A DNA stretch of 18,465 nt, from the IMG/VR virus record IMGVR_UViG_2731957841_000006, positions 1 through 18,465 of that record; one strand, 5' to 3'. The DNA comes from a virus. Lineage: Duplodnaviria; Heunggongvirae; Uroviricota; Caudoviricetes. Below, piece after piece: positions 1 through 16,173 of the stretch. Positions within the stretch are counted from its first letter, which is position 1, and the number at the start of each line of letters is the position of its first letter. A program made the translations under genes and the position numbers. The notes under the pieces are model-generated. The model had not been told where the DNA came from. It searched no databases and saw only the letters and a list, made by a program, of their open reading frames with translations.

Positions 1-1254
1 ATGCTGGAACAAATGGGCATTGCCGCGAAGCAAGCCTCGTATAAATTAGCGCAACTCTCCAGCCGCGAAAAAAATCGCGTGCTGGAAAAAATCGCCGATG
101 AACTGGAAGCACAAAGCGAAATCATCCTCAACGCTAACGCCCAGGATGTTGCTGACGCGCGAGCCAATGGCCTTAGCGAAGCGATGCTTGACCGTCTGGC
201 ACTGACGCCCGCACGGCTGAAAGGCATTGCCGACGATGTACGTCAGGTGTGCAACCTCGCCGATCCGGTGGGGCAGGTAATCGATGGCGGCGTACTGGAC
301 AGCGGCCTGCGTCTTGAGCGTCGTCGCGTACCGCTGGGGGTTATTGGCGTGATTTATGAAGCGCGCCCGAACGTGACGGTTGATGTCGCTTCGCTGTGCC
401 TGAAAACCGGTAATGCGGTGATCCTGCGCGGTGGCAAAGAAACGTGTCGCACTAACGCTGCAACGGTGGCGGTGATTCAGGACGCCCTGAAATCCTGCGG
501 CTTACCGGCGGGTGCCGTGCAGGCGATTGATAATCCTGACCGTGCGCTGGTCAGTGAAATGCTGCGTATGGATAAATACATCGACATGCTGATCCCGCGT
601 GGTGGCGCTGGTTTGCATAAACTGTGCCGTGAACAGTCGACAATCCCGGTGATCACAGGTGGTATAGGCGTATGCCATATTTACGTTGATGAAAGTGTAG
701 AGATCGCTGAAGCATTAAAAGTGATCGTCAACGCGAAAACTCAGCGTCCGAGCACATGTAATACGGTTGAAACGTTGCTGGTGAATAAAAACATCGCCGA
801 TAGCTTCCTGCCCGCATTAAGCAAACAAATGGCGGAAAGCGGCGTGACATTACACGCAGATGCAGCTGCACTGGCGCAGTTGCAGGCAGGCCCTGCGAAG
901 GTGGTTGCTGTTAAAGCCGAAGAGTATGACGATGAGTTTCTGTCATTAGATTTGAACGTCAAAATCGTCAGCGATCTTGACGATGCCATCGCCCATATTC
1001 GTGAACACGGCACACAACACTCCGATGCGATCCTGACCCGCGATATGCGCAACGCCCAGCGTTTTGTTAACGAAGTGGATTCGTCCGCTGTTTACGTTAA
1101 CGCCTCTACGCGTTTTACCGACGGCGGCCAGTTTGGTCTGGGTGCGGAAGTGGCGGTAAGCACACAAAAACTCCACGCGCGTGGCCCAATGGGGCTGGAA
1201 GCACTGACCACTTACAAGTGGATCGGCATTGGTGATTACACCATTCGTGCGTAA
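1..1254 (+). CDS. proA: Gamma-glutamyl phosphate reductase (glutamate-5-semialdehyde dehydrogenase), full length 417 aa
   Basis: Translation matches the enterobacterial ProA sequence as I recall it end to end ([16 protein letters not shown]...GDYTIRA); the window begins at the start codon. Confidence 0.95.
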
Positions 1255-1368
1255 ATAAAACCGGGTGATGCAAAAGTAGCCATTTGATTCACAAGGCCAT
1301 TGACGCATCGCCCGGTTAGTTTTAACCTTGTCCACCGTGATTCACGTTCGTGAACATGTCCTTTCAGG

Positions 1369-1444
1369 GCCGATATAGCTCAGTTGGTAGAGCAGCGCAT
1401 TCGTAATGCGAAGGTCGTAGGTTCGACTCCTATTATCGGCACCA
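1369..1444 (+). tRNA. thrW: tRNA-Thr (anticodon CGT), 76 nt with encoded CCA
   Basis: GCCGATATAGCTCAGTTGGTAGAGCAGCGCATTCGTAATGCGAAGGTCGTAGGTTCGACTCCTATTATCGGCACCA folds as a cloverleaf: 7-bp acceptor stem GCCGATA/TATCGGC, anticodon loop TTCGTAA, T-loop GGTTCGACTCC. Sits directly after proA and directly before the integrase gene. Confidence 0.9.
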
Positions 1445-1458
1445 TTAAAATCAATAAG

Positions 1459-2622
1459 TTACACATCATTAGTACCTTCCTTATTTTTTGACTGGGACAA
1501 ATTTGGGACCGATGGGTTCAGGATCGAGTCTATTTGCCGTGCGTGTTCGGTAAGGTGATTAGGTGCAAGGTGAGCATATCGACGAACCATTTCGATAGAC
1601 TCCCAGCCTCCCATTTCCTGTAACACTGACAACGGGACTCCGGCTTGAACCAGCCAACTTGCCCAGGTGTGTCTCAAGTCGTGAAATCTGAAATCATCAA
1701 TACCAGCCCGTCTCAGCGCCGCTTTCCAGGCTGTGTTTGCGTCATACCGCATCTTCCTTACTGTTGGCGCTTTCGTTCCGTCTGGTTTGGTACAGCTTTC
1801 CTTGTACACAAATACCCAACGGTGATGATTCCCGATTTGTTTTTTCAATACGCGACATGCAGTATCATTCAGCGCAACGCCAATTGCGCGGTTTGATTTA
1901 CTCTCTTCCGGGTTTATCCATGCCACCCGGCGCTGCATATCTATTTGTTGCCATTCAAGGTTGATGATGTTCGAGCGTCTTAAGCCTGTTGCCAGTGCAA
2001 ATTCAACAACAGACTTTAATGGCTCCGGACATTCATCAATCAGCCTTTGTGCTTCATGGGGCTCCAGCCAGCGGATCCGTTTATTCTTTGGTTGAGGCAC
2101 TTTAATAATTGGTGCCTTATCCAGCATTTTCCATTCACGCTCTGCGGCTCTTAGTAGGGCCTTTATAAATGAAAGATGCGTAGCCTTCGTTGCAACGGAC
2201 GCTGGTTTTGGCGTGTATTCTGGAACAGGTTTCCCTTTTTTTCTGCATGCTTCTGCCCTGAGTTTCCAGTTTTCCTCATGACGCCGGTTCGTCATTTTCT
2301 GCATTGCTGAATAAATTTTTGATTCAGTAATGTCTCTTAGTTGCATTCCTGCGAAATGTTGAAGCCAGAATCCGATCCGGCTTTTGTCATCGTCCAGTGA
2401 TTTTTTATGTGCTTTCTCTTCAAGCCACCTGACACAAGCTTCCTCGAACGTTATATCAGGTATTTCACCAAGTTTGCTGACCCGCCATGCTTCAGCCTTT
2501 AGCTTGTCATGGAGTTCTGTCGCCTGCCTTTTGTCCTTTGTTCCAAGAGACTGTTTAAATCTTTTACCGTTCGGCAATGTGAAACTGGCGTACCATATTT
2601 CACCTCTGCGGAAGAGTGACAT
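1459..2622 (-). CDS. int: Phage integrase, tyrosine recombinase (P22-type, thrW-specific), 387 aa
   Basis: 387-aa ORF with C-terminal tyrosine-recombinase signature ([10 protein letters not shown]...VRRYAHL); N-terminus [22 protein letters not shown] resembles P22 Int; ATG preceded by AGAGGA; lies next to the tRNA 3' end. Confidence 0.92.
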
Positions 2623-2849
2623 TTTCTTTCCTCTGTTATGCCATCACCCGCGCTCACCTGGACAGTATGCAGCGGAGACTGAAGAGCCGCAATGCAGGCT
2701 TGTCGTGTTGTGAGGTAAGGAGATTTATTCTTAGTGGGATCTTTGCGTGTTGCCTGAAGACGCCCTGTGCGTATCCAGTTAATGGCAGTCGGTCTGGATA
2801 TCTTGAGAAAATGACAGGCCTCATCGAGTGTGAGGCTGTATGGCTCCAT
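2499..2849 (-). CDS. xis: Excisionase (Xis), 116 aa; 3' end overlaps the int start
   Basis: Internal ATG of the 2499..2933 ORF ([31 protein letters not shown], winged-helix/excisionase-like) preceded by GAGGTG at good spacing; size and position match P22-type Xis. Confidence 0.7.
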
Positions 2850-3154
2850 TATTTCACCTCTTGTTGTGACATTGTTGAAAAATGGATACCAGCTCGTTGC
2901 TGCCAGACGATCCAACCGAGAGTCATATCCCATGCCATGTATTCGTTATCGCCGTTTTTTGCTCTCCGACGATCTACTAAGTCACCGAAACGCTTTTCCA
3001 TGAATAATTCATAAGCTTCGCGTTCATCTGGTTCTACTTCCAGAGATAGGAGTGCGATTTCATAAGCACGGCGCTCAATATCGTCTCGCACGTCAAGGCT
3101 GCTGATACGCTCTTTAATTTCTTTAATCAGTTCTTTGTCGGTAAAAGTGGTCAT
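2849..3154 (-). CDS. Hypothetical prophage early protein, 101 aa
   Basis: ORF with GGAG upstream of the ATG; its stop overlaps the xis start (TAATG) and its start overlaps the stop of the upstream gene, indicating translational coupling in a leftward operon. Confidence 0.6.
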   Translation of the reverse strand: MTTFTDKELIKEIKERISSLDVRDDIERRAYEIALLSLEVEPDEREAYELFMEKRFGDLVDRRRAKNGDNEYMAWDMTLGWIVWQQRAGIHFSTMSQQEVK

Positions 3155-3516
3155 TATGCTCCAGCCTCCGGTGCTTTTGGCATTACTGCCCAGTGAGTGA
3201 TATTGACGTTTTCAAGGTCCCCGACCTGAAATGTCCACTGCCATTCTCCGGTTTCTTTTTGTCCCCAGGTGTACCAGAGAGAACGCCAGCCAATTAGCCA
3301 GCCTTCTCCGTTAGCATCGAATAACAAAACACTTTCATTTGCTGGTGGCAGTTCAGTTGACACTGGTATTACTTTGTTTTCCTGTGCTGCACATTTAGCT
3401 TCAAGCGCATCGAATTTACGCACCAGGTATTCAGCATCCGTTTCATTCACTTTCAGATCTCGCGGTACACATCTCCCACGAAGAAACCCTTCCATTTCGA
3501 AAACATTCATGCGCAT
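3154..3516 (-). CDS. Hypothetical prophage early protein, 120 aa (alternative start at 3510)
   Basis: ORF in the same leftward operon; GGAG 8 nt upstream of the ATG at 3516; ATG at 3510 overlaps the upstream stop (ATGA). Confidence 0.6.
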   Translation of the reverse strand: MRMNVFEMEGFLRGRCVPRDLKVNETDAEYLVRKFDALEAKCAAQENKVIPVSTELPPANESVLLFDANGEGWLIGWRSLWYTWGQKETGEWQWTFQVGDLENVNITHWAVMPKAPEAGA

Positions 3517-4043
3517 TTGCGTAACTCCGATAATTCGTTAAAGCGTTCCATAAACATCCCGTAGGCATGGCCTGGAGCCAGTGGAATCACGTTGAACATC
3601 TCTGTTGCCGGGATACCTTCCAGCACAGGCCAGAAAGAGCCATCATCAAGCCCGAGATCGCGGCGTTCGGTTGCCAGCATAATGAGATCGGCATATTTCA
3701 CTGGCGTGCTCATAACAGGAGGTAACCCGTATTTCTCACGGATTACGGCGTCTATTTTTTCTTCCATCCGTTTATAGTCAGGAAGAAGTCGTTTCAGTGG
3801 TGCGGGGATGTCCTGGCAATATGCTTCTGTTGCATCATGCATTAAAGCTTCAAAAGCAAATTCCTGCGGCACCAGCTGGCTGCAAAGCACCGCATGTTGG
3901 GCGACACTGTAGAAGTGTGAAAGATGTCCTGCAAAGCGACAGATATTTGAAAGGGAAACCGCGATATCGTTAATAACGATGTCGTCTTTATTTATCCTGT
4001 CATAATAAAAATGCTTCCCGGAAAAAGTTTTAATAAATGACAT
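3507..4043 (-). CDS. HD-domain metal-dependent phosphohydrolase (YfdR-like, nucleotidase family), 178 aa
   Basis: HD motifs visible in translation (RFAGH...H...MHDATEAY); ATG at 4043 preceded by GGAGAA (the ORF track begins at a GTG 27 nt upstream); resembles prophage CPS-53 YfdR as recalled. Confidence 0.8.
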   Translation of the reverse strand: MSFIKTFSGKHFYYDRINKDDIVINDIAVSLSNICRFAGHLSHFYSVAQHAVLCSQLVPQEFAFEALMHDATEAYCQDIPAPLKRLLPDYKRMEEKIDAVIREKYGLPPVMSTPVKYADLIMLATERRDLGLDDGSFWPVLEGIPATEMFNVIPLAPGHAYGMFMERFNELSELRKCA

Positions 4044-4094
4044 TTTGTTCTCCACGTATATGCGCTGCACCGCGCTGAATTCCGGTAAAAGGAA

Positions 4095-4515
4095 GCCCTC
4101 ACCGTCCGGCGATTATTGAGTCAATTACATTTCCATAAATGCCCCCGTAGGGGCGGTTAGTTTCTCCACAAAACAGAGAAGAACACCTGCGGTGGCAGCC
4201 GCCCGGATGGATTGGGTTATGAGCCCGTCGTCCGGTGATGCTCTTCTCTGTTTTGTAAAAAGGACGGTACCAGCCGGAAGCAAGGGTACAAGCTGGTACC
4301 GCCAAGACTACACACAGCATAAAGTTGTGGTGCCGGGTGCCTCCCGGTGCCTGGCGAAGGTTGCACACCAGGCGGGTGGGTATCCACAGAAGGTCGACTG
4401 TCAGCCTCAACCTTAACCCGCGTGCGCTGAGCCGCATTCACCACAACGCTAAGGATTCTCTCTGGTTGAAAATACTTAGCTGTTATGTGCCTGCTTTTAG
4501 CCACATCAGGCGAGG
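4095..4515. other. GC-rich, highly structured non-coding island (candidate structured RNA or element remnant), class unknown
   Basis: About 400 bp much more GC-rich than its flanks; open in several frames on both strands but no translation looks protein-like; nested inverted repeats (e.g. ACAAAACAGAGAAGA ... TCTTCTCTGTTTTGT enclosing ~50 nt; GGTACCAGC ... GCTGGTACC). Confidence 0.3.
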
Positions 4516-4523
4516 TGGACCTA

Positions 4524-4573
4524 GTTATTCCCCAACAACAAGGATTCGGTTAATCTGGTTATCCCCAACAACG
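4524..4573 (+). repeat. Two direct repeats GTTAT(T)CCCCAACAAC about 34 bp apart, just upstream of the 144-aa ORF
   Basis: Seen directly: GTTATTCCCCAACAACA and GTTATCCCCAACAACG; candidate regulator binding sites. Confidence 0.4.
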
Positions 4574-4587
4574 CAAAAGGAAAAGAA

Positions 4588-5022
4588 ATGTCCGGTAATA
4601 TCTATACGCTGTACAAATCCCACTGTGAAAATGTTGGAAAGTATCGGGGCATTGAAATCAGTGGGGTAGTGTCATCAGTCGAAATAAGCAAAGTTGAATC
4701 AAGGGCAACATTACTTACTCTTTTGGACCTTGTCTTACATGAGCACCGGAAGAAATTCGGCACTCCCTATAATCAGTTGAATGGGAAAAAGGCTCTGGTT
4801 CACCTTATTCTGATGAAGCATCACTGGATGCCAAAACAGATTAATGAGATGAAATTTGATGAACTTCTTCTTTCAATTCAGGATGAACTCACACTTGATA
4901 AAATAAGCGTAACCGCCCAGAAATTTTTAGATTATCGAGACTGGAGATCACAAATTCATCACTTTGATGATTTTGACGAAAATGAATGGGATCCTAATTT
5001 GTCTGCACAATATCTAAAGTAA
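4588..5022 (+). CDS. Hypothetical protein, 144 aa (immunity-region moron candidate)
   Basis: 435-nt ORF in AT-rich DNA with AGGA 6 nt upstream of the ATG; no comparable ORF on the opposite strand; no domain recognised by me. Confidence 0.55.
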   Translation: MSGNIYTLYKSHCENVGKYRGIEISGVVSSVEISKVESRATLLTLLDLVLHEHRKKFGTPYNQLNGKKALVHLILMKHHWMPKQINEMKFDELLLSIQDELTLDKISVTAQKFLDYRDWRSQIHHFDDFDENEWDPNLSAQYLK

Positions 5023-5200
5023 CATCCTGTGATAAAACCGTGATTTCCTGATCCAGTTTTTTTAAGGAGTCTATTGTTTCCTGTCGATAAGACAGCACTT
5101 CACGAAGCTGGTTTATAGCTGCCAGCTTCTTTGTCATCCACTCATAAATTTCCTCATCTGTGTAGCCAGGCGCGACGATTTTGGGTTCTGTTTTGTGCAT
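4994..5200 (-). CDS. Hypothetical protein, 68 aa; first gene downstream of the predicted PL promoter
   Basis: ATG at 5200 preceded by GAGGAG at ~7 nt; 3' end overlaps the convergent 144-aa ORF by ~29 nt; not arginine-rich, so not an obvious N homologue. Confidence 0.5.
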   Translation of the reverse strand: MHKTEPKIVAPGYTDEEIYEWMTKKLAAINQLREVLSYRQETIDSLKKLDQEITVLSQDVTLDIVQTN

Positions 5201-5244
5201 TTCACATCTCCTCAAGTTATCAGTTACTTGTTGATGGGGACCAG

Positions 5245-5257
5245 ATTGTTAAAGAGC
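5245..5257 (-). promoter_or_regulatory. boxA-like antitermination element in the PL leader
   Basis: Leftward transcript reads GCUCUUUAACAAU, identical over 13 nt to the rrn boxA core as I recall it; a 5-bp stem-loop (CAAGU...ACUUG) follows before the RBS of the 68-aa gene. Confidence 0.45.
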
Positions 5258-5259
5258 TA

Positions 5260-5283
5260 AGCGTCCTGTAGGGCGCTTTTTTG
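5260..5283 (+). terminator. Candidate intrinsic terminator on the + strand
   Basis: AGCGUCC-UGUA-GGGCGCU stem-loop (one G.U pair) followed by UUUUUUGUUG on the + strand. Confidence 0.4.
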
Positions 5284-5367
5284 TTGCTAACGAATCATCC
5301 TGGACTTCATATGCCCCAGGCGGCTACTTCGTGGGCGTCCTGCCTGTTCGTTGTTTCGCTTGGGTAC

Positions 5368-5395
5368 ATTATGTATCTTAAAGGTACATTGTCAA
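5368..5395 (-). promoter_or_regulatory. PL-like early-left promoter with overlapping operator half-sites
   Basis: On the minus strand: TTGACA, 16-nt spacer, CATAAT; flanked by GGTACA/TGTACC motifs of the same type as the OR palindromes. Confidence 0.5.
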
Positions 5396-5398
5396 GTA

Positions 5399-5422
5399 TA
5401 AAAAAACCTGCCGAAGCAGGTT
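5399..5422 (-). terminator. Intrinsic terminator of the cI transcript
   Basis: Minus-strand RNA ACCUGC-UUCG-GCAGGU followed by UUUUUUUAUA, immediately downstream of the cI stop. Confidence 0.6.
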
Positions 5423-5434
5423 CATAAACATTGA

Positions 5435-6109
5435 TTAGGCTTTGATTTTGTATCTTCTTGGTTTTCCTGAGAAAATCACTGTACCAATTATAGAGCAATT
5501 ACCGTTGATCTTAATGTAAGGCTCAGGCCAGTTTGGGTTTAACGCTTTGAGATAACGCTGTGTCCCATCTTCTATCAACCTTTTGAAGGTGGTTTCACCT
5601 GTATCGTGCATCAATGCAATAACGTCGTCACCGTGGCAGGCAGGTACTTCAGGATCGACAAAAATCATGTCTCCCGGGCGGTACTCATCAATCATTGAAT
5701 CACCTATCACCCGCAAGATATAAGTCATTTCCCCACAGGGTACAGGGCAGGGATACGTTTCTGCTGTGCTCAAATCAACCTCAGAATATCCAACTTCTTT
5801 CCATGCTCCGGCCTGTACCCATGATATGACAGGGACTAATGTGATTTGTTTATTAGTGATTGAAACATCAGGTTTTTTTGTGATGTTCGTTGTCTGGTGT
5901 TCTTGATCGAGCCATCCGACAGGCAGGTCGAAACATTTTTCGATGTGTCGTGCCATGCTGTCACCGATATTTTTAGTAGCACCATCTCCCATAAACCTGC
6001 TGGTCTGGGTTGGCTCGCGATCAATCATAGTGGCAAAGGAAGAATTCCCGCCAACACCATCTCTCAGTTTTCTGGCGTTAGACCGCCGGATGTCATGGAT
6101 TGTTTTCAT
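5435..6109 (-). CDS. cI: CI-like prophage repressor, LexA/S24 peptidase family, 224 aa
   Basis: N-terminal HTH region plus C-terminal S24 autopeptidase signature (GDSM ... K); divergent from the cro-like gene across an operator-rich region; no SD upstream of the ATG (probably leaderless). Confidence 0.88.
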   Translation of the reverse strand: MKTIHDIRRSNARKLRDGVGGNSSFATMIDREPTQTSRFMGDGATKNIGDSMARHIEKCFDLPVGWLDQEHQTTNITKKPDVSITNKQITLVPVISWVQAGAWKEVGYSEVDLSTAETYPCPVPCGEMTYILRVIGDSMIDEYRPGDMIFVDPEVPACHGDDVIALMHDTGETTFKRLIEDGTQRYLKALNPNWPEPYIKINGNCSIIGTVIFSGKPRRYKIKA

Positions 6110-6123
6110 AACGAAATTAAAAC

Positions 6124-6192
6124 CCTTGTACCGTTAAGGTACAAGTATCTTGAAGGTTCATTTCAATCATGTAATATGTACACCGGAGGTAC
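6124..6192. promoter_or_regulatory. OR/PR region: operator palindromes and rightward promoter
   Basis: Perfect 21-bp palindrome CTTGTACCGTTAAGGTACAAG; second site TGTACACCGGAGGTACA overlapping the cro RBS; candidate PR TTGAAG, 16-nt spacer, TAATAT at ~6149-6176. Confidence 0.55.
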
Positions 6193-6199
6193 ATATTGT

Positions 6200-6400
6200 A
6201 TGAAAGCGTATTGGGACTCTTTAACCAAAGAACAGCAGGGCGAGTTGGCCGGAAAAGTTGGCTCAACACCTGGCTACTTACGGCTGGTTTTCAATGGCTA
6301 TAAAAAAGCCAGTTTTGTGCTGGCTAAAAAACTTGAGCAATGCACGTCAGGTGCAATTACGAAATCTGACTTAAGACCGGATATCTATCCGAAAGATTAG
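6200..6400 (+). CDS. Cro-like DNA-binding regulator (YdaS-like), 66 aa
   Basis: ATG with GGAGG ~10 nt upstream; small HTH-type protein (MKAYWDSLTKEQQGELAGKVGSTPGYLRLV...) divergent from cI. Confidence 0.8.
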   Translation: MKAYWDSLTKEQQGELAGKVGSTPGYLRLVFNGYKKASFVLAKKLEQCTSGAITKSDLRPDIYPKD

Positions 6401-6431
6401 CAGAACACTTTCAATTTTTAACCACAGAACG

Positions 6432-6995
6432 ATGAGGCTAATCGTGGGTAAGCATCACTGGAAAATAGAAAAACAGCCTGAGTGGTACGTGAAAGCTGTC
6501 AGAAAAACTATCGCGGCGTTGCCGGGTGGTTACGCTGAAGCGGCTGACTGGCTCGATGTAACAGAAAACGCTTTATTCAACCGCCTTCGTGCAGATGGCG
6601 ATCAGATTTTCCCGCTGGGATGGGCAATGGTTTTACAGCGTGCTGGTGGCACTCACTTCATTGCTGATGCTGTGGCGCAGTCTGCAAATGGCGTCTTTGT
6701 GTCTCTTCCTGACGTCGAGGATGTGGACAACGCCGATATCAACCAACGCCTGCTGGAGGTCATTGAACAGATCGGCAGTTATTCAAAACAGATTCGTTCA
6801 GCAATTGAAGACGGTGTAGTGGAACCGCATGAGAAGACAGCAATTAACGACGAGTTGTACCTCTCAATTTCGAAGCTGCAGGAGCATGCAGCACTGGTCT
6901 ACAAAATTTTTTGCATTTCAGAAAGTAATGACGCCCGCGAGTGTGCAGCTCCGGGCGCCGTGGCGTGTCGTGACTGTGGAGAAACTAACGCATGA
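6432..6995 (+). CDS. YdaT-like prophage regulatory protein (CII/CP76-like family), 187 aa
   Basis: ORF immediately after the cro-like gene, as in the Rac ydaS-ydaT arrangement; family assignment from memory. Confidence 0.65.
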
Positions 6996-7330
6996 ACAGT
7001 TTAACAACACACTACCGTCGCTCGCAACTGATTGCGCTTCCTGTACCGGGTGGAAAAGCGAAGGTGGAGTATTGCTATGCAGTGAATGTACCAGGTGACA
7101 GGGAAATTGTAACCCACAGCTTTGCAGAGTGGGCTGTGGGGGATTTCAACCGGCAGAAGGAGGCAGTCCTTTGCGACAAGTTAACCGCTGGTTCAAAGAT
7201 CACTACGGAGTGCCCGTCAGAGTCATTCGTTGGGAGCCGGAAACACAACGGGTTATCTACCTCCGTGAAGGCTATGAGCATGAGTGCTTCAGCCCGCTCG
7301 AACAGTTTCGTCGTAAATTCAGGGAAATAG
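6992..7330 (+). CDS. Hypothetical protein, 112 aa (frame uncertain, see findings)
   Basis: ATG overlaps the YdaT-like stop (ATGA); stop lies 9 nt before the replication-gene start; C-terminal half is low-complexity. Confidence 0.4.
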
Positions 7331-7350
7331 AGGTCGGTCATGAGCACTAA
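7171..7350 (+). CDS. Candidate small protein, ~59 aa, in the alternative frame (TTG start)
   Basis: AGGAGG 7 nt upstream of an in-frame TTG; protein-like translation (...[55 protein letters not shown]); its stop overlaps the next gene's start. Confidence 0.3.
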
Positions 7351-8293
7351 ATTAACCGGCTATGTATGGGATGGTTGCGCAGCGTCAGGCATGAAATTAT
7401 CCAGCGTGGCAATTATGGCCCGCCTGGCTGATTTCAGTAATGACGAAGGTGTGTGCTGGCCATCAATTGAAACCATTGCCCGCCAGATTGGCGCGGGGAT
7501 GAGTACCGTCAGAACGGCTATCGCACGGCTGGAAGCAGAAGGCTGGTTAACGCGTAAGGCGCGTCGCCAGGGTAACCGCAATGCGTCGAATGTTTATCAG
7601 CTTAACGTTGCGAAGCTTCAGGCAGCGGCATTTTCTCAACTGTCAGATTCTGACCCGTCAAAATCTGACGTATCAAAATCTGACCCGTCAAAATTTGATG
7701 CGTCGAAATCTGGCAAAAAAGCGGGTTTTCACCCGTCAGAATCTGGCGGGGATCCGTCAGTAAAATCAAAACATGATCCGTCAGATAAAAAACCTTCTCG
7801 TCCGGACGCTTCGCAACCGGACACGCAGACGGCTGAACAGGATTTTTTAACTCGCCATCCTGATGCGGTTGTATTCAGCCCTAAAAAGCGCCAGTGGGGA
7901 ACGCAGGATGATTTGACCTGCGCACAGTGGCTCTGGAAAAAAATCATTGCCCTGTACGAGCAGGCCGCCGAATGTGACGGCGAGGTGGTTCGTCCCAAAG
8001 AACCGAACTGGACAGCATGGGCAAACGAAATTCGCCTGATGTGTGTGCAGGATGGTCGTACTCACAAACAAATCTGCGAGATGTACAGCCGCGTCAGCCG
8101 CGATCCGTTCTGGTGCCGTAACGTGCTCAGCCCGTCGAAGTTGCGGGAAAAATGGGATGAGCTTTCCCTGCGCTTATCGCCGTCCGTCAGCACGCACACA
8201 GAAAAACGTGAAGAGCGGTGCTTACGGAAAAGCAGCAAGCGCGCTGTATCGGGTGATGAATGGTATCTGTCAGGGAATTACGTGGGGGCTTAA
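7340..8293 (+). CDS. Phage replication initiation protein (O-like, N-terminal winged-helix DNA-binding domain), 317 aa
   Basis: AGAGG 6 nt upstream of the ATG; N-terminal HTH-like region; DNA iterons inside the gene as in lambdoid O genes. Confidence 0.75.
7643..7790 (+). repeat. Iteron array (candidate ori) inside the replication gene
   Basis: Five tandem 15-bp units (TCAAAATCTGACCCG-like) at 7643-7717 encoding SDPSK-type peptide repeats, then an A-rich tract and three further CCGTCAG motifs. Confidence 0.6.
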
Positions 8294-8403
8294 TGACGAC
8301 GTTAACTCAGTGTCAGCAGCAGGTGCTGGATATGCTGATTTCTTATCAGAAAGAACGTGGCTTCCCGCCAACCAATCAGGAGGTGGCAACCATGCTGGGA
8401 TAA
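8293..8403 (+). pseudogene. 36-codon remnant of a gene with a LexA-like N-terminal DNA-binding domain, truncated at the deletion junction
   Basis: ATG overlaps the replication-gene stop; [36 protein letters not shown] aligns with the LexA N-terminus (LTARQQEVFDLI...GMPPTRAEIAQRLG) as recalled, then stops where tail-fibre homology begins. Confidence 0.4.
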
Positions 8404-8405
8404 CC

Positions 8406-11051
8406 CATGCGACTGATGCTGCAGGCTCAGCGCGTGCAGCCAGCACGTCAGCCGGACAGGCCGCGACGTCGGCTCAGGAGGCGTCTTCCAGCGCAGGAAC
8501 GGCATCAACAAAGGCCACTGAAGCATCAAAAAGTGCTGCCGCTGCAGAGTCCTCAAAAAGCGCGGCGGCCACCAGTGCCGGTGCGGCGAAAACGTCAGAA
8601 ACGAATGCCGCAGCGTCACAACAATCAGCAGCCACTTCTGCATCCACTGCGACGACGAAAGCGTCAGAAGCCGCCACTTCAGCCCGGGATGCGGCGGCCT
8701 CCAAAGAGGCGGCAAAATCATCAGAAACGAACGCCTCCACAAGCGCCAGCAGTGCAGCCTCCTCGGCAACGGCGGCAGGAAATTCCGTGAAGGCGGCAAA
8801 AACGTCCGAGACGAATGCTAAGTCTTCTGAAACGGCAGCGGAACAGAGCGCCTCAGCTGCGGCAGACTCTGAGACAGCAGCTGCATCATCGGCCCGTGAG
8901 GCGTCCATTAAGGCAGAGGAGGCAGCAGTCAGTGCCACCGCCGCCGGAAAATCGGCAGAAAGCGCCGCATCATCCGCTTCAACAGCCACAACGAAGGCTG
9001 GCGAAGCCACTGAACAGGCCAGCGCAGCAGCGAGGTCTGCTTCCGCAGCGAAGACATCCGAAACGAACGCGAAAGCGTCGGAAACCAGCGCAGAATCCTC
9101 AAAAACGGCTGCCGCATCGTCCGCCAGTTCGGCGGCGTCATCGGCATCATCGGCGTCTGCTTCAAAAGATGAGGCGACCAGACAGGCGTCAGCAGCGAGG
9201 GGCAGCGCCACGACGGCATCCACGAAGGCGACAGAGGCTGCTGGCAGTGCGGCAGCGGCAGCACAGAGCAAAAGTACGGCAGAATCCGCAGCAACGCGCG
9301 CCGAGACAGCAGCAAAACGGGCAGAGGATATTGCATCCGCCGTGGCGCTTGAGGATGCGAGCACGACGAAAAAGGGGATAGTACAGCTCAGTAGTGCGAC
9401 CAACAGCACTTCCGAGTCACTGGCGGCAACACCAAAAGCCGTTAAGGCCGCGTATGACCTGGCTAACGGGAAATACACCGCACAGGATGCAACGACAGCA
9501 CAGAAAGGGATAATCCAGCTAAGCAGCGCGACCAACAGCACGTCTGAAACGCTTGCCGCGACACCAAAGGCAGTAAAAGCAGCCAATGACAATGCTGAGA
9601 AACGTCTGCAGAAAGATCAGAACGGTGCGGATATCCCTGGCAAAGATACCTTTACGAAAAATATTGGTGCCTGCCGTGCCTTCGGTGGGTCAGTAAGCAC
9701 AACAACAGGAAACTGGACGACTGCACAGTTTATCGAGTGGCTGGATTCTCAGGGAGCATTTAACCATCCATACTGGATGTGCAAGGGTTCCTGGTCTTAT
9801 GGCAATAATAAAATCATTACTGATACTGACTGCGGTAATATTCATCTCGCCGGAGCTGTCATTGAAGTAATGGGGATAAAGTCAGCGATGACGATCCGCA
9901 TTACCACACCGACCACCTCCACTGGTGGTGGAACAACTAACGCCCAGTTTACCTATATTAATCACGGAACAGATTATTCACCTGGCTGGCGAAGGGACTA
10001 TAACTCCAGAAATAAGCCAACGGCATCAGAGATCGGGGCGTTACCGTCAGGTGGAACAGCAGTATCATCAGTTAATCTGGCTTCAAAAGGTCGGGTAACC
10101 GCGCTGACAGACAATACGCAGGGGGCAGCAGGTCTTGAGTTATACGAGGTGTATAACAACGGATATCCAACAGCGTATGGAAATATCATTCACCTGAAAG
10201 GGATGACAGCCGTTGGCGAAGGTGAGTTACTCATCGGCTGGAGTGGTACAAGCGGTGCTCATGCTCCGGCATTTATTCGTTCACGACGGGATACGACCGA
10301 CGCAAACTGGTCGCCGTGGGCGCAGCTTTACACCTCGGCTCATCCTCCTGCAGAGTTTTATCCAGTCGGTGCACCAATCCCGTGGCCATCAGATACCGTT
10401 CCGTCTGGCTATGCCCTGATGCAGGGGCAGACTTTTGACAAATCTGCATACCCGAAACTTGCAGTTGCTTATCCGTCAGGCGTGATCCCTGATATGCGTG
10501 GCTGGACGATTAAGGGCAAGCCCGCCAGTGGTCGGGCCGTATTATCTCAGGAACAGGACGGCATTAAATCGCACACCCACAGCGCCAGCGCATCCAGTAC
10601 GGATTTGGGGACGAAAACCACATCGTCGTTTGATTACGGAACCAAATCCACGAATAACACCGGGGCGCATACCCATAGTATTAGCGGGACCGCAAATAGT
10701 GCCGGTGCGCACCAACACAAGAGTTCCGGTGCATTTGGTGGCACGAACACGAGCATTTTCCCTAATGGTTATACCGCGATTTCAAATCTAAGCGCGGGGA
10801 TTATGAGCACAACAAGCGGTAGTGGCCAGACTCGTAATGCAGGGAAGACATCATCAGATGGTGCTCATACCCACTCGCTGTCCGGCACTGCTGCAAGCGC
10901 AGGCGCACATGCACATACTGTCGGTATTGGTGCTCATACGCACTCCGTTGCGATTGGTTCACATGGACACACCATCACCGTTAACGCTGCTGGTAACGCG
11001 GAAAACACCGTCAAAAACATCGCATTTAACTATATTGTGAGGCTTGCATAA
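8406..11051 (+). pseudogene. stf: Side tail fibre protein (Stf-like), 5'-truncated; lacks the N-terminal tail-attachment region and its own start codon
   Basis: Ala/Ser/Thr-rich repeat region, two copies of the tail-fibre repeat KGI(V/I)[11 protein letters not shown](S/T)[11 protein letters not shown], and His-rich GAHTHS-type C-terminal motifs; similarity to Rac StfR (from memory) begins mid-protein; the ORF's upstream 120 codons overlap the replication gene in another frame. Confidence 0.7.
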
Positions 11052-11635
11052 TGGCATTCAGAATGAGTGAACAACCACGGACCATAAAAATTTATAATCT
11101 GCTGGCCGGAACTAATGAATTTATTGGTGAAGGTGATGCATATATTCCGCCTCATACAGGTCTGCCAGCAAACAGTACCGATATTGCACCGCCAGATATT
11201 CCGGCTGGCTTCGTGGCTGTTTTCAACAGTGATGAGTCATCGTGGCATCTCGTTGAAGATCATCGGGGTAAAACGGTTTATGACGTGGCTTCCGGCGACG
11301 CGTTATTTATTTCTGAACTCGGTCCGTTACCGGAAAATGTTACCTGGTTATCGCCGGAAGGGGAGTTTCAGAAGTGGAACGGCACAGCCTGGGTGAAGGA
11401 TACGGAAGCAGAAAAACTGTTCCGGATCCGGGAGGCGGAAGAAACAAAAAACAACCTGATGCAGGTAGCCAGTGAGCATATTGCGCCGCTTCAGGATGCT
11501 GCAGATCTGGAAATTGCAACGGAGGAAGAAACCTCGTTGCTGGAAGCCTGGAAGAAGTATCGGGTGTTGCTGAACCGTGTTGATACATCAACTGCACCTG
11601 ATATTGAGTGGCCAGAAGAACCAGACACCGTGTAA
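11051..11635 (+). CDS. tfa: Tail fibre assembly protein (Tfa), 194 aa
   Basis: Start overlaps the stf stop (TAATG); typical Tfa size, position and sequence character. Confidence 0.85.
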
Positions 11636-11647
11636 GCAAAAAAGAAA

Positions 11648-11690
11648 AACCGCAGACACGACGTATGCATGACGTGCTGCGGTTTATGCT
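11648..11690 (+). terminator. Candidate terminator hairpin downstream of tfa (copy 1 of a duplicated ~40-bp sequence)
   Basis: CCGCAG(A)CACG ... CGTGCTGCGG stem followed by TTTATGCTT; a near-copy occurs at ~15811-15853. Confidence 0.45.
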
Positions 11691-11751
11691 TATCACTTAA
11701 AGACTCAAAAATTAGGTGAGTAACGGACCGGGGACATAGCTCCTTTTTTTC

Positions 11752-12573
<822 letters not shown>

Positions 12574-12880
12574 CTAATCCTTTGAATTCACATAGTATAA
12601 AAAAGATACTTTTCCTCATAATGTGAGCTAATTTTATGTTTCGTTTGATGATTGGACCGGTCTCGAAAACCGTAGGCACGTAGTATGCGTTAATTTATGA
12701 ACAAACTACTTGTCTGCTGTTTTTCTGTCATTAGTCGTATATAGAATGATTCTCTATGCCTAACAAAGCATCACCAGTGCTAGATTACGTTGTAGTCACT
12801 GTTTAAATATCCAGATAAAATATTTCCTTCTGGGTTGAATGAGTGATAGAGTTTCACCCATTAGACCCGTTGGAGGAATT

Positions 12881-14314
12881 ATGTCTGAATTTGAAGTGTT
12901 GGCACAGCATCTGCTGAAGGAAGCCGAGGCGGAAGAAAAGCTGCGACAGGAAAATGATAAAAAGCTTATCGAGAAAGTGCTGGAAATCTATGATCAGAAG
13001 TATGTAGCTGAATTACTGAGAAAAGTCGGAAAAAATGAGTGGAGCCGTGAAACCATTAACCGCTGGATTAATGGCAAGTGTTTACCAAAATCGTTGACTT
13101 CAGTAGAAGAGTCTCTTCTGCGTAAGATGCTACCAGAACCACCTGCAAACCATCCGGAATATGCTTTCCGCTTCATTGACTTATTTGCTGGAATTGGAGG
13201 GATACGGAAAGGTTTTGAGGCCATTGGAGGCCAGTGTGTTTTTACCAGTGAATGGAATAAAGATGCTGTGCGTACATACAAGGCCAACTGGTTTAACGAT
13301 GAACAGGTGCATAAATTCAATCTCGATATTCGGGAAGTCACGCTGAGTGATAAAACCGATGTATTGGAAACGGATGCTTATGCATATATTGATGAGCATG
13401 TGCCGGATCATGATGTGCTTCTTGCGGGGTTCCCGTGCCAGCCATTTAGCCTTGCTGGTGTTAGTAAGAAAAACTCACTTGGTCGTGCGCATGGTTTTGA
13501 ATGTGAAGCACAAGGAACACTTTTTTTTGACGTGGCACGTATTATACGAGCAAAAAAACCGGCAATTTTTGTGCTGGAAAATGTCAAAAATCTGAAGAGC
13601 CATGATAAGGGTAAAACTTTCAAAGTCATTATGGAGACCCTTGACGAGCTGGGCTACGAAGTTGCCGATGCTGCAGAAATGGGAAAAAACGATCCAAAGA
13701 TTATCGATGGGAAGCATTTTTTGCCTCAGCATCGTGAACGCATTGTTCTGGTCGGATTTAGACGAGATCTGAATATTCACAAGGGGTTTACCTTGCGTGA
13801 TATCAGTCGTTTTTATCCGGAACACCGCCCATCATTTGGTGAATTGCTGGAGCCTGTAGTCGACAGTAAATATATACTTACGCCAAAACTATGGGAGTAC
13901 CTTTATAACTACGCCAAAAAGCATGCAGCCAAGGGGAATGGTTTTGGCTTTGGGTTGGTCAATCCTGAGAATAAGGAAAGCATTGCACGCACACTTTCTG
14001 CCAGATATCACAAAGACGGATCAGAAATTCTTATTGATCGTGGTTGGGATATGGCAACGGGAGAGGCTGACTTTATGAATGAGAGTAACCAGGCTCGTCG
14101 ACCACGCAGGCTGACTCCCCGAGAGTGCGCACGCCTTATGGGGTTTGAAAAACCTGGAGGGAAACCATTCCGTATTCCGGTTTCAGATACTCAGTCATAT
14201 CGGCAGTTCGGTAACTCCGTTGTGGTGCCAGTATTTGAAGCCGTTGCCAGACTTCTGGAACCCTATATCCTCAAAGCTGTTTCTGCTGATGCTGGTAAGA
14301 CTGGGCAGCCTTGA
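12881..14314 (+). CDS. DNA (cytosine-5) methyltransferase, Dcm/M.EcoRII-like (predicted CCWGG), with N-terminal HTH-like extension
   Basis: m5C-MTase motifs: [15 protein letters not shown] (motif I), GFPCQPFS (motif IV), ENV (motif VI), QFGNSV; GGAGG upstream of the ATG at 12881; N-terminus MSEFEVLAQ resembles M.EcoRII as recalled. Confidence 0.88.
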
Positions 14315-14317
14315 GAA

Positions 14318-14346
14318 CACCTCCCGGCCTTTTAAGCCGGGAGTCA
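14318..14346. terminator. Hairpin between the convergent methyltransferase and endonuclease genes
   Basis: CTCCCGGC-CTTTTAA-GCCGGGAG, 8-bp stem. Confidence 0.4.
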
Positions 14347-14348
14347 GC

Positions 14349-15557
14349 CTATGATAGTTCAGCGTAAAGTTCTATCAGCTCAGTAATGAATGCTCCGAGC
14401 GTTATTAATTCTTCTCTAACTGCTTCTGGGTATTTTTTATGTAAAGTTGATGGTACAACGAGTCTGACACCCGCATCTTTCATTTCTCGGTATTGTGCTG
14501 AAGAAACACCTTCTTGCAGCGTAAATAAATGTACCTGATGGATTTTATCTGCTTCATTCAGTATCTGACGCCAGCGATCTTTGCAGGTGGTCTTTACTGC
14601 CAGCATACGTAAGTTTTCTACAGGAAATTCAACGTCATGATATGCCTCTGCTGAAGGAAACAGGAAATCTGGTTTTTTATTACCTTCAGTAACTGCCTGA
14701 GTGGAGAAATGTCGTAGTCCGTGCTCGATAAAAAGCTTCTCTAGGTGAAGTTCAAGTGATTTACCTGCCCTTGATTTACGTCGATTACTGACAGAGTTGG
14801 CTAATGCAATAAACTCATCTACAGAATTGAATCCTTTCTTAATAATATCAAGAACATGTAATTCCTCGACGAGTAGAAAAATATCATACTCGACACGCCG
14901 ACGGTCAATCAGTTGCTCATCTGGATCCTTGGAGTTTTTAGCATAATGGCCAGCAGCATATTGAATAATTTCGTTTCCAGAAGGAAAACGCTTCTTCCAG
15001 TCTTCAGGAATAACATATTTATGATTTACTGGAGTTTGCTGAAGAGACAATCCGCCCAAAATTTGTCCGGCAGGGCCGGAAATTAGGGTTCCAGGTATGA
15101 TTTCGCCAATAGCAGACTCGATGATATCCTCTTCATCGGGATTGACGCAGACCCATATATCTACCTCGGAACAGTCAGTGTTCTGTTCGTTTAACCTGAA
15201 AGCAAGAATTGTGAGGGCTCCTGTATTTTCAGAGTTCTGTAATGGACTTCCTCTCCCCCAGCGCGTAATTCTTTTTTCGTTTCGGGTCTTACCAAAATAA
15301 CGGTTGTTGTAATAAATTGCGCGTGCTTGGGTATCAGGGCAATCATGGGATGATACATGCGCAGTAAGGAAGACTGAAGGGTTCAGTTCGCGAGTATGAT
15401 TGATAGAAGGAAAAAGCTTTTCAACGATATTTGAGGGGATATAAAGTCCGACCTGATGGCCACCTGTTGCGCCTGTGTCGTTTGCAGAAAGGCGTTTGAT
15501 GTAGATAAAGTAATTCCCGCTTGCGATATCAAGCAGCCAGTTATGAAAAACCGACAT
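14349..15557 (-). CDS. Type IIE restriction endonuclease, EcoRII-like, ~402 aa
   Basis: Translation closely resembles EcoRII as I recall it (MSVFHNWLL..., ~404 aa) and is convergent with a Dcm-type methyltransferase, the known EcoRII R-M arrangement. Confidence 0.82.
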   Translation of the reverse strand: MSVFHNWLLDIASGNYFIYIKRLSANDTGATGGHQVGLYIPSNIVEKLFPSINHTRELNPSVFLTAHVSSHDCPDTQARAIYYNNRYFGKTRNEKRITRWGRGSPLQNSENTGALTILAFRLNEQNTDCSEVDIWVCVNPDEEDIIESAIGEIIPGTLISGPAGQILGGLSLQQTPVNHKYVIPEDWKKRFPSGNEIIQYAAGHYAKNSKDPDEQLIDRRRVEYDIFLLVEELHVLDIIKKGFNSVDEFIALANSVSNRRKSRAGKSLELHLEKLFIEHGLRHFSTQAVTEGNKKPDFLFPSAEAYHDVEFPVENLRMLAVKTTCKDRWRQILNEADKIHQVHLFTLQEGVSSAQYREMKDAGVRLVVPSTLHKKYPEAVREELITLGAFITELIELYAELS

Positions 15558-15639
15558 ATACATCCCTTTGTTAACATACAGTCAGGGTTAACATTTTTCC
15601 ATAGTTATAGATAAGCGGCTAGGAACTTAAGGGAAAAAC

Positions 15640-15664
15640 AAAAAGCCCGCATAAGCGGGCTTTT
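15640..15664. terminator. Bidirectional terminator-like hairpin upstream of the restriction gene
   Basis: AAAAAGCCCGC-ATAA-GCGGGCTTTTT: perfect 7-bp stem flanked by A-run and T-run. Confidence 0.45.
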
Positions 15665-16173
15665 GTGTCACTCGAGAGCCGCGGCTCCTTTGCGTATCTT
15701 TTTTGTCTCCTCACCGTCTGGTCGGTGTCCTGCTGAGACTGCTAATTTCCTGTTTTTGTTAGTACTGTCCTAGAACTGTCCAATCATGATTGGTGGGCTG
15801 GCGGAGTTGAAACCGCAGACACGTCGTATGTAAGAACGTGCTGCGGCTGGCTGGCCAGCTTCTGATAGTGCGAATATTGAATGATTTCTATCTGTTATAG
15901 ATTTTACCGTATTTCGGCATGAATGAAACTGAATATCCTCCCACCGATTCTCCATGACTTTACGCCACTGTCTCTAGGGCTGCTATGTGCCAGGAGCAGA
16001 CGTTACTAACATCTATCTGCATCAATCTGTGGGGAGCAGAACCGTGATATGTTAACTGCATCCAAACGGAGTCAACACCAGAAAAAATCCTCCTAGTAGG
16101 ACGGTGCACTAGTATTCATCTTGTTCTAATCTCAATCCACAGCGGTAAAAATTGCGAAGAAAAAGGGATTTAT

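Follow-up and report, generated by a model that had tools for sequence, protein, structure and literature searches.

The cell-division small RNA (sRNA) DicF of the K-12 prophage Qin is cut from an operon transcript: RNase III sets the 5' end of a 190-nt form, RNase E makes a 53-nt form, and there is no internal promoter (PMC10448788). A cut made by RNase III on the 3' side of the terminator gives a further, 72-nt form of DicF (PMC9438474). Transcripts of STnc100, a prophage sRNA that occurs in multiple copies, have been detected, and a 2026 preprint relates it to PasD. The last 47 nt of the host stress sRNA RprA form a stable processed RNA that represses narP on its own, probably by an indirect route (PMC9262595). 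Here we analyse an 18,465-nt window of viral DNA (positions 1 to 18,465 of the IMG/VR record IMGVR_UViG_2731957841_000006; positions below refer to this whole stretch unless another locus is named). It contains, on the minus strand at about 4580 to 4141, an unexpected element: a segment identical to part of RprA, carried on a DicF-type, STnc100-related prophage leader cassette.

The block forms the leader of an early-left operon under repressor control, in a cryptic prophage of the SfV/CPS-53 kind located at thrW. We are highly confident that it represents a structured leader RNA of the DicF/STnc100 type, read in the sense direction of the operon. We also lean towards the fuller interpretation that it is a DicF-type processing cassette releasing an Hfq-type sRNA that mimics RprA.

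Structure and conservation of the block

The original prediction, which covered positions 4095 to 4515, had picked out a GC-rich, heavily base-paired island on the leftward PL transcript, and these properties are borne out. The GC content is 0.53–0.58 over 4100–4499 compared with 0.35–0.47 in the flanks, and the gene order (Table 1) puts the block on the leftward early transcript. The minus strand of the 421-nt block folds to −183.9 kcal/mol (z = −6.9), with none of 100 shuffled sequences as good; the value for the plus strand is −162.8 kcal/mol (z = −3.6). The predicted extent needs some correction, since the true unit is somewhat larger (about 4580 to 4141) and the stretch 4095–4140 is the upstream region of yfdR. 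Likewise, all three of the inverted repeats that had been named exist, but the perfect 15-nt arms of the first are 60 nt apart and not about 50 nt. A structured RNA acting as a regulatory or processing element had been among the interpretations offered, and it is this one that is upheld: the block is non-coding (see below) and is a conserved unit with covarying helices, a minus-strand orientation and a dicF-like layout.

Of 5426 complete E. coli genomes, 3004 contain part of the block, as do about 60 phage records. In every annotated case (SfV, mEp460, ST64B, phiES15, sal3 and F1055) it has the early-left orientation and lies between the repressor, often followed by a small open reading frame (ORF), and the first early-left gene. 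A unit in the same place and orientation is also found in SfII, SfIV and Klebsiella phages. The block is kept at one position in many phages. Because its parts differ in distribution we treat it as a chain of modules, which were defined from alignments A1, A2 and A5 together with 120 IMG/VR loci found by a closing-helix pattern. Covariation of the helices extends over more than 80 phage copies.

The centre of the block is a five-way junction, which we term the core. A covariance model of it (R1), built from 28 diverse cores that included four canonical STnc100 copies, gives the minus strand 94 bits and the plus strand 13 bits, identifying the former as the functional one. R1 finds no second copy of the core in the window. 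In a comparison of 49 distinct sequences, pairing in the closing helix P1 reaches 94.8%, with changes on both sides at five to six of its nine pairs, and P2 has such changes at four of five pairs; the covariation of the core exceeds that of all 500 shuffles and of all slid controls. Because MAFFT did not align P5 correctly from one core type to another, its pairing counts came out lower (61.8% and 58.9%), and the P5 stems were therefore read directly. It can be seen that the loop AGGCA is constant on stems CCGGG, CCUGG, GGUGG and GGGGG. When the 195-nt RNA from 4451 to 4257 is folded in isolation, it forms the five-way junction, an unpaired stretch and a terminator.

Upstream of the core is subdomain I, an interrupted helix (fold z = −4.2) that in more than 20 variants has 17–21 bp with differing inner sequences. 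Because GUUGUGG is a strand both of this helix and of P1, the two are mutually exclusive, and we infer that RNase III cleavage would switch the fold as GUUGUGG changes partner.

A further element at the 5' end is conserved in SfV, sal3, phiES15, F1055 and Kp4866-6. The stems of its hairpins vary between phages while the loop GUUGGGGAA is kept (by reading), and the element on its own folds no better than shuffled sequences (z = 0.28). The window has two GUUGUUGGGGAWAAC direct repeats here, at 4577–4524 (−), and at the same spot other phages have a variable-stem hairpin with the conserved G-rich loop GUUGGGGAA, followed by ACCACC..GCCUGAUGUGG..AAAAGCAGGC. The repeat region could be a protein-binding site.

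On the other side of the core there is an intrinsic terminator (−23 kcal/mol), which a simple terminator scan missed because its loop is longer than 8 nt. Homologues have at least five unrelated stem sequences at the terminator position, each followed by T5–7; these terminators are not alignable between types and were folded singly. The U-tract and the next 20 nt also pair with 4192–4163 in the base of a long hairpin, module B (z = −8.4). RNAalifold gives 23 basal pairs for module B, four of which have changes on both sides, and its apex is nearly invariant from E. coli to Klebsiella phages. Module B is found alone in Stx2c, cdtI, mEp460, F1055 and Klebsiella phages, and it is a candidate for a second RNase III site and mRNA 5' structure. 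The stems of the small hairpin that ends the block differ between homologues (CGACC/GGUCG, GGCGG/CCGCC, CGCC/GGCG and GCCCC/GGGGC).

Relation to STnc100, DicF and the lambda late leader

At gathering thresholds a search of Rfam gave only thrW and the family IS009 in the window, but in E-value mode a near-threshold match to STnc100 (RF02076; 43.4 bits, E = 5.3e-8) was found at 4477–4254 (−), covering the full length of the model. Compared with four canonical STnc100 copies, the block has the signature of the family, comprising the UGGUG/CACCA closing helix, AAU, the first hairpin and a CCGGG-AGGCA-CCCGG hairpin that abuts the closing helix. In common with STnc100 and PasD, the order ...UGGUG-AAU-hairpin ... 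CACCGGGAGGCACCCGGCACCA... leads into a single-stranded stretch that varies and then an intrinsic terminator, in an RNA of about 200 nt that lies in sense orientation within a phage operon. However, the canonical STnc100 copies are found in the late region, after Q/stx and before nanS-p or holin/lysis genes, whereas the window copy is an early-left leader, and the inner arms and 3' segment of the window copy are unrelated. We conclude that the window core is a divergent relative of STnc100 in another operon. In the late region of vB_EcoS-640R1, between Q and the lysis genes, there are two STnc100-type cores about 470 nt apart (locus L132, 2043–2161 and 2510–2627).

The cassette shares its design with the ydfC-dicF-dicB spacer of prophage Qin. 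Both are in an early-left operon directly after the repressor and small ORFs, and both have a long CAYAAC.../...GUUGUGG helix 5' of a core, then an exposed segment and an intrinsic terminator of the GGCGGUAYCAG type, with further double-stranded structure of the RNase III type right after it. In K-12 Qin, the 340 nt before dicF hold a core that by reading is near-identical over about 110 nt to the phage core type of loci L095 and L019, and in L095 a seed cassette and module B, the same module as in the window, come after this core. The 175-nt gap between dicF and dicB holds a second core (STnc100, 34 bits). Judged by length, the 5' end of the 190-nt DicF falls on the 3' strand of the long helix just before the first core, and the end of the 72-nt DicF on the extended closing helix of the second.

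DicF itself aligns with the terminator region of the window (DicF UUUGGCGGUAUCAG, window CUUGGCGGUACCAG), and the Rfam DicF family (RF00039) gives a weak match at 4316–4262 (19.4 bits, E = 0.15, compared with 76.7 bits for K-12 dicF). The two nevertheless differ in several respects. The exposed segment is UUUAUGCUGUGUGUAGUCUU in the window and UUUCUGGUGACGUUU in DicF, and the terminator loop of the window lacks the ACUCCGU of DicF, which we take to be the ftsZ-pairing site. The window core is of an STnc100-like 'W' type, and module B stands in place of the second Qin core. By analogy with DicF, the window RNA would be processed by RNase III as well as by RNase E.

The same helix and a short core are also present, in sense orientation, in the lambda late leader just after tR', between tR' and S (locus L136, 44790–44945). 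The helix is CACAAC-AG-GUAAGAGCAUU...CAGUGCUCUUUCC-GUUGUG (or, written differently, CACAAC-AGGUAAGAGCAUU...CAGUGCUCUUUCC-GUUGUG), and in the short core, GUUGUGCUG-AAU...CAGCACAAC, one P1 pair is changed on both sides. The lambda core is much shorter, with 64 nt inside P1, has no P5 AGGCA hairpin, exposed seed or terminator, and belongs to the late operon. Daniels et al. (1988, Virology) reportedly mapped RNase III processing sites in the lambda late leader.

The exposed segment and explanations of its role

Between the core and the terminator lies the segment UUUAUGCUGUGUGUAGUCUU, which is unpaired in centroid structures and conserved to at least 90% among 22 diverse phage copies that have mutually unrelated terminators. 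Window positions 4319–4304 are identical to nt 62–77 of K-12 RprA at all 16 positions, for which the chance expectation is about 8e-6. When one genome per species was scanned for TGCTGTGTGWAGWCTT, at least 120 loci were found; among the matches listed, 66 are the 3' part of chromosomal RprA (in Enterobacterales ranging from Xenorhabdus to Escherichia), about 41 match by chance and a few are prophage units. In both RprA and the window the contiguous 16 nt, UGCUGUGUGUAGUCUU, are directly 5' of the terminator and ACAAC is a few nt upstream, and some phage copies (the L053 type) also share a GCCCAUC...GGUGGGC terminator with RprA. Processed RprA begins with exactly the segment shared with the window, and in the predicted structures the window likewise has a single-stranded AUUGCUGUGUGUAGUCUUU directly 5' of the terminator hairpin. 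The window RNA differs from RprA in having no homology to nt 1–55, the region that pairs with rpoS, csgD and hdeD. It also lies in a prophage instead of the ydiK-ydiL locus, and it is not transcribed from the Rcs-controlled rprA promoter.

The same position is occupied by other sequences in related cassettes. In those of the mEp460, cdtI and Stx2c type it holds GCCACUGCUUU, the first 11 nt of RybB, which we take to be the RybB seed. Here GCCACUGCUUU immediately follows the core, and the same terminator and module B come next (mEp460, locus L004, 3989–4065; also Stx2c, cdtI, 2H10 and numerous IMG/VR loci). Of the cassettes counted in the phage loci retrieved, 38 are of the RprA type, 25 of the RybB type and one of the DicF type. 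Because a conserved RprA segment and its RybB and DicF alternatives occur at the same position, the slot appears to hold a trans-acting seed. Our limited literature search for earlier descriptions of 'RprA-like' or 'RybB-like' prophage sRNAs gave nothing relevant, which is a weak sign of novelty.

We propose that the cassette works as follows. Transcription from the PL-type promoter would cross the cassette, and the subdomain I helix (4487–4442) would form first and be cut by RNase III. The cut would free GUUGUGGUG for pairing with CACCACAAC, so that the STnc100/PasD-type five-helix core closes. Termination at 4303–4257 would then give an RNA of about 195 nt, made up of the core, the unpaired segment and the terminator, as the counterpart of the 190-nt DicF, and cleavage by RNase E in the AU-rich CAAC/UUUAUG junction would leave an Hfq-type sRNA of about 66 nt. 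The layout of this product, with a single-stranded region, a terminator and a U-tail, is usual for an Hfq-dependent sRNA, and Hfq would presumably bind it. As its single-stranded 5' part is identical to RprA over 16 nt, the ~66-nt RNA would be expected to act in trans on the targets of processed RprA; taken alone, we regard this trans-acting step as a real possibility that falls somewhat short of being probable. Read-through of the terminator would fold the U-tract into the 25-bp module B, a probable second RNase III site that would set the 5' end of the yfdR-yfdS-yfdT-xis-int mRNA.

A number of observations weigh against this scheme. The scores for STnc100 (43.4 bits) and DicF (19.4 bits) are below the gathering scores of the two families (47 and 48, respectively), and the Rfam RprA family (RF00034) is absent from matches up to E = 10 in 3900–4700. 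Neither a scan for sigma-70 sites nor visual inspection revealed a convincing promoter immediately upstream of the cassette, which speaks against an independent sRNA gene and agrees with the absence of an internal promoter at dicF. The convergent 144-aa gene lies between the presumed PL and the cassette, and may affect the amount of transcription that reaches the cassette. At 18 bp with two interruptions, subdomain I is short for RNase III, whose substrates have about two turns of nearly unbroken double helix. Furthermore, the RprA seed for rpoS, csgD, hdeD and narP is nt 30–70, largely upstream of the shared nt 62–77, and the action of processed RprA on narP appears to be indirect (PMC9262595). 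No pairing partner of RprA nt 62–77 was found in our literature search, and the shared segment might be an Hfq or RNase E recognition module instead of a seed.

An explanation that would not need to invoke any action in trans is that the block works only in cis. In this case the terminator would attenuate early-left transcription, the RNase III stems would set the ends and stability of the mRNA (yfdR...xis, int), the released RNA would be a by-product without targets and the RprA-like segment would be only an RNase E/Hfq site. A strong terminator does lie upstream of all the early-left genes, module B and the last hairpin are always directly before the first ORF, the lambda late leader has a related short unit without seed or terminator, a core without terminator directly precedes dicB, and processed RprA acts on narP without predictable pairing (PMC9262595). 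On the other hand, the 16–20-nt segment stays the same where terminator stems and cores have been exchanged, and an RNase E/Hfq site needs just AU-richness and not 16 fixed bases. Moreover, the alternative cassettes bear the RybB seed (11 nt from RybB position 1) or the DicF sequence, whose trans activity is established. Overall we consider a purely cis-acting role unlikely.

It has much less probability, in our view, that the core is a tRNA-like or tRNA-derived element that recruits tRNA-processing enzymes (RNase P, RNase E) and so punctuates the polycistronic transcript. The resemblance lies in the 9-bp closing stem, the 5-bp hairpin abutting its 3' strand and the U after the seventh pair, and it extends in one variant (the L051 type) to a perfect T-arm, GCCGGUUCGAUUCCGGC, a D-arm-like GCUCAAUGGCGAGC and a match to the tRNA-like domain of tmRNA (20 bits); in late regions, units also adjoin real tRNA genes. 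However, true T- and D-arm motifs occur in that one variant only, ARAGORN finds no tRNA in eight loci that bear core variants, and in the window the P5 loop is AGGCA and not a T-loop, with no CCA/discriminator pattern. The variant core is at L051 5799–5936 and L063 953–1091, and further loci are insertions in L007, L008 and L009 and sites downstream in L040 and L063. Some units have GGUUCGAUUCC motifs upstream, and in late regions tandem units stand beside real tRNA genes. Taken together, the T-arm variant, the GGUUCGAUUCC motifs and the tRNA-adjacent tandem units suggest a tRNA-related origin or shared processing.

Slighter still is the chance that the core is a cis-acting antitermination RNA which, like HK022 put, modifies RNA polymerase for passage of the terminator in a phage without N. 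An N-like gene is not apparent; the small ORF following PL is acidic and lacks an arginine-rich motif, and the core is just upstream of a strong terminator in operons that need read-through. Against this, the same core is found in Q-dependent late operons and, without a terminator, before dicB; R1 finds nothing in HK022 (E up to 1, filters off) and blastn gives no HK022 match. The core also differs in size and architecture from put RNA, which we take to be a two-stem structure.

Overlapping ORFs are indeed present on both strands of the block, and protein annotations exist for it. A plus-strand ORF (4192–4416) matches phrog_3651, of unknown function, with E = 3e-49, RefSeq/PGAP places a 'frameshifted hypothetical protein' pseudogene on the minus strand at the equivalent of 4125–4444, and F1055 and Kp4866-6 have ORFs of 186–198 aa across the region. 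That any of these reflects a protein-coding gene or a decayed fragment of one is nonetheless very improbable. Relative to ST64B and sal3 (78% identity) there are 55–57 substitutions, spread evenly over the codon positions in all three candidate frames (p = 0.5–0.9), and the indels are of 20, 1 and 1 nt, not multiples of three. When the long ORF of F1055 is compared with sal3 and Kp4866-6 the matches switch frame, and in the window only its two ends are covered. The translations of the block ORFs are of low complexity, rich in Cys, Arg and Pro, and have no match to Pfam families, whereas the RNA helices covary. We conclude that the block is non-coding, as the original prediction had argued from overlapping ORFs on both strands without a plausible protein, and that the PHROG 3651 and RefSeq/PGAP protein calls are probably spurious ORF annotations over a structured RNA. 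The same prediction's other suggestions, a defence-associated RNA (considered here as retron msr-msd, type III toxin-antitoxin RNA or similar) or the remnant of a foreign mobile element, can be dismissed as having next to no probability: despite the nested inverted repeats, the GC-richness and the defence genes further right in the prophage, there is no reverse transcriptase domain in the window ORFs tested, no adjacent toxin gene, no PADLOC match for the neighbouring genes and no tandem repeat, the defence genes form a separate island about 7 kb away, and the block has a fixed early-left position in many functional phages.

Returning to the DicF-type cassette that releases an RprA-like sRNA, we tentatively put forward a more general form of it. 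Lambdoid early-left leaders may carry an exchangeable 'seed cassette' behind a common scaffold of RNase III stem and STnc100-type core, loaded with the seeds of host core sRNAs (processed RprA here, RybB in mEp460, cdtI and Stx2c, and DicF in Qin). Derepression would then reprogramme envelope-stress and outer-membrane regulons, and the 190-nt DicF, STnc100, PasD and the RNA described here would form one superfamily. A single modular design of prophage RNA is shared by the STnc100 and PasD sRNAs, the 190-nt DicF precursor that RNase III and RNase E process, and part of the late leader of lambda, all of which had been studied separately. Prophages may in this way express look-alikes of host core sRNAs (processed RprA, RybB) from a repressor-controlled early operon. 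If active, these would feed commonly, and so far unnoticed, into regulation of the RprA and RybB type, as over half of the complete E. coli genomes have part of the cassette, and they would account for strain differences in some sRNA phenotypes.

Genomic setting

The window opens with proA and thrW, which are followed by the cryptic lambdoid prophage of SfV/CPS-53 type. The positions of its features are listed in Table 1.

Table 1. Features of the RNA block and of the surrounding prophage (window positions, except where another locus is named).
Feature	Position	Strand	Description
RNA block	about 4141–4580	−	functional strand −
5' conserved leader element	4489–4580	−	two GUUGUUGGGGAWAAC copies (hairpin loops) and motif ACCACC..GCCUGAUGUGGCUAAAAGCAGGC
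Subdomain I	4442–4487	−	18-bp interrupted helix CAUAAC-A-GCUAAG-U-AUUUUC ... GAGAAU-C-CUUAGC-GUUGUG; predicted RNase III site
Core	4324–4447	−	five-way junction: P1, AAU, P2, two or three variable arms, P5
P1	4447–4439 / 4332–4324	−	GUUGUGGUG with CACCACAAC
P2	4436–4433 / 4426–4423	−	UGCG with CGCA
P5	4347–4343 / 4337–4333	−	CCGGG, loop AGGCA, CCCGG
Unpaired 'seed'	4304–4323	−	UUUAUGCUGUGUGUAGUCUU, between core and terminator
Intrinsic terminator	4257–4303	−	13-bp stem GGCGGUACCAGC...GCUGGUACCGUC, then U5 (4261–4257); DicF-like 3' end
Module B	4163–4261	−	long hairpin; 25-bp base including terminator U-tract; conserved apex CACCGGACGACGGGCUCAUAACCCAAUCCAUCCGGG
Small hairpin	4141–4154	−	GCCCCUACGGGGGC; last element before first ORF; also probable yfdP-yfdQ deletion junction
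Inverted repeat	4168–4182 / 4243–4257		ACAAAACAGAGAAGA / TCTTCTCTGTTTTGT; extends to 25-nt arms
Inverted repeat	4265–4274 / 4292–4301		CGGTACCAGC / GCTGGTACCG
Inverted repeat	4141–4154		GCCCCCGTAGGGGC
thrW	1369–1444		tRNA-Thr (CGU); sole tRNA detected in window
int	1459–2622	−	
xis-like	2499–2933	−	
yfdT, yfdS, yfdR	2849–4043	−	
ECs1072-family 144-aa gene	4588–5022	+	phrog_5286
68–73-aa ORF	4994–5215	−	
Likely PL-type promoter	5395–5368	−	TTGACA-16-CATAAT, 11 of 12 consensus positions; just downstream of cI terminator
cI repressor	5435–6109	−	LexA type
cro / cII-like genes	right of cI	+	
PD-T4-3	11752–12528	−	defence island
C5 methylase	12839–14314	+	of EcoRII-type restriction-modification pair
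EcoRII endonuclease	14349–15563	−	
PDC-S06 / AAA_13 ATPase	16174–18465	+	extends past window end
K-12 Qin cores flanking dicF	L130 3251–3364 and 3452–3583 (within L130 3160–3600)		

The PL-type site is the presumed start of the transcript that carries the cassette. The 144-aa gene is a moron that has been inserted, on the opposite strand, in the space separating the small post-PL ORF from the cassette. It is absent from SfV, and the functional link between block and gene that had been suggested finds no support. The gene has no Pfam or PADLOC match, its 3' end overlaps the 68–73-aa ORF by 29 nt and, going by its orientation, its transcription must run against the early-left transcript.

At the other end of the block, window 4154–4040 is homologous to the spacer between yfdQ and yfdR in SfV, mEp460 and K-12 CPS-53. 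This homology overlaps the cassette end by 12 nt, inside the GCCCCUACGGGG hairpin, and yfdP and yfdQ were probably lost by recombination between two copies of this hairpin. K-12 CPS-53 was expected to carry the block upstream of yfdP but has only the yfdQ-yfdR spacer.

The prophage is truncated further right, where a replication or HTH gene (7340–8293) overlaps the start of the tail-fibre gene (8043–11051). Because the lysis and head genes are missing between the two, we regard the prophage as a cryptic remnant at thrW. The tail-fibre-assembly gene (11051–11635, Caudo_TAP) contains a full-length match to Rfam IS009 (226 bits, 11394–11592, +), so that this 'RNA family' match overlaps coding sequence. 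PasB, whose neighbourhood is enriched in IS009, was considered as an identity for the RNA block and rejected, as it is located among structural genes. The right end of the window, from 11752 to 18465, is a defence island.

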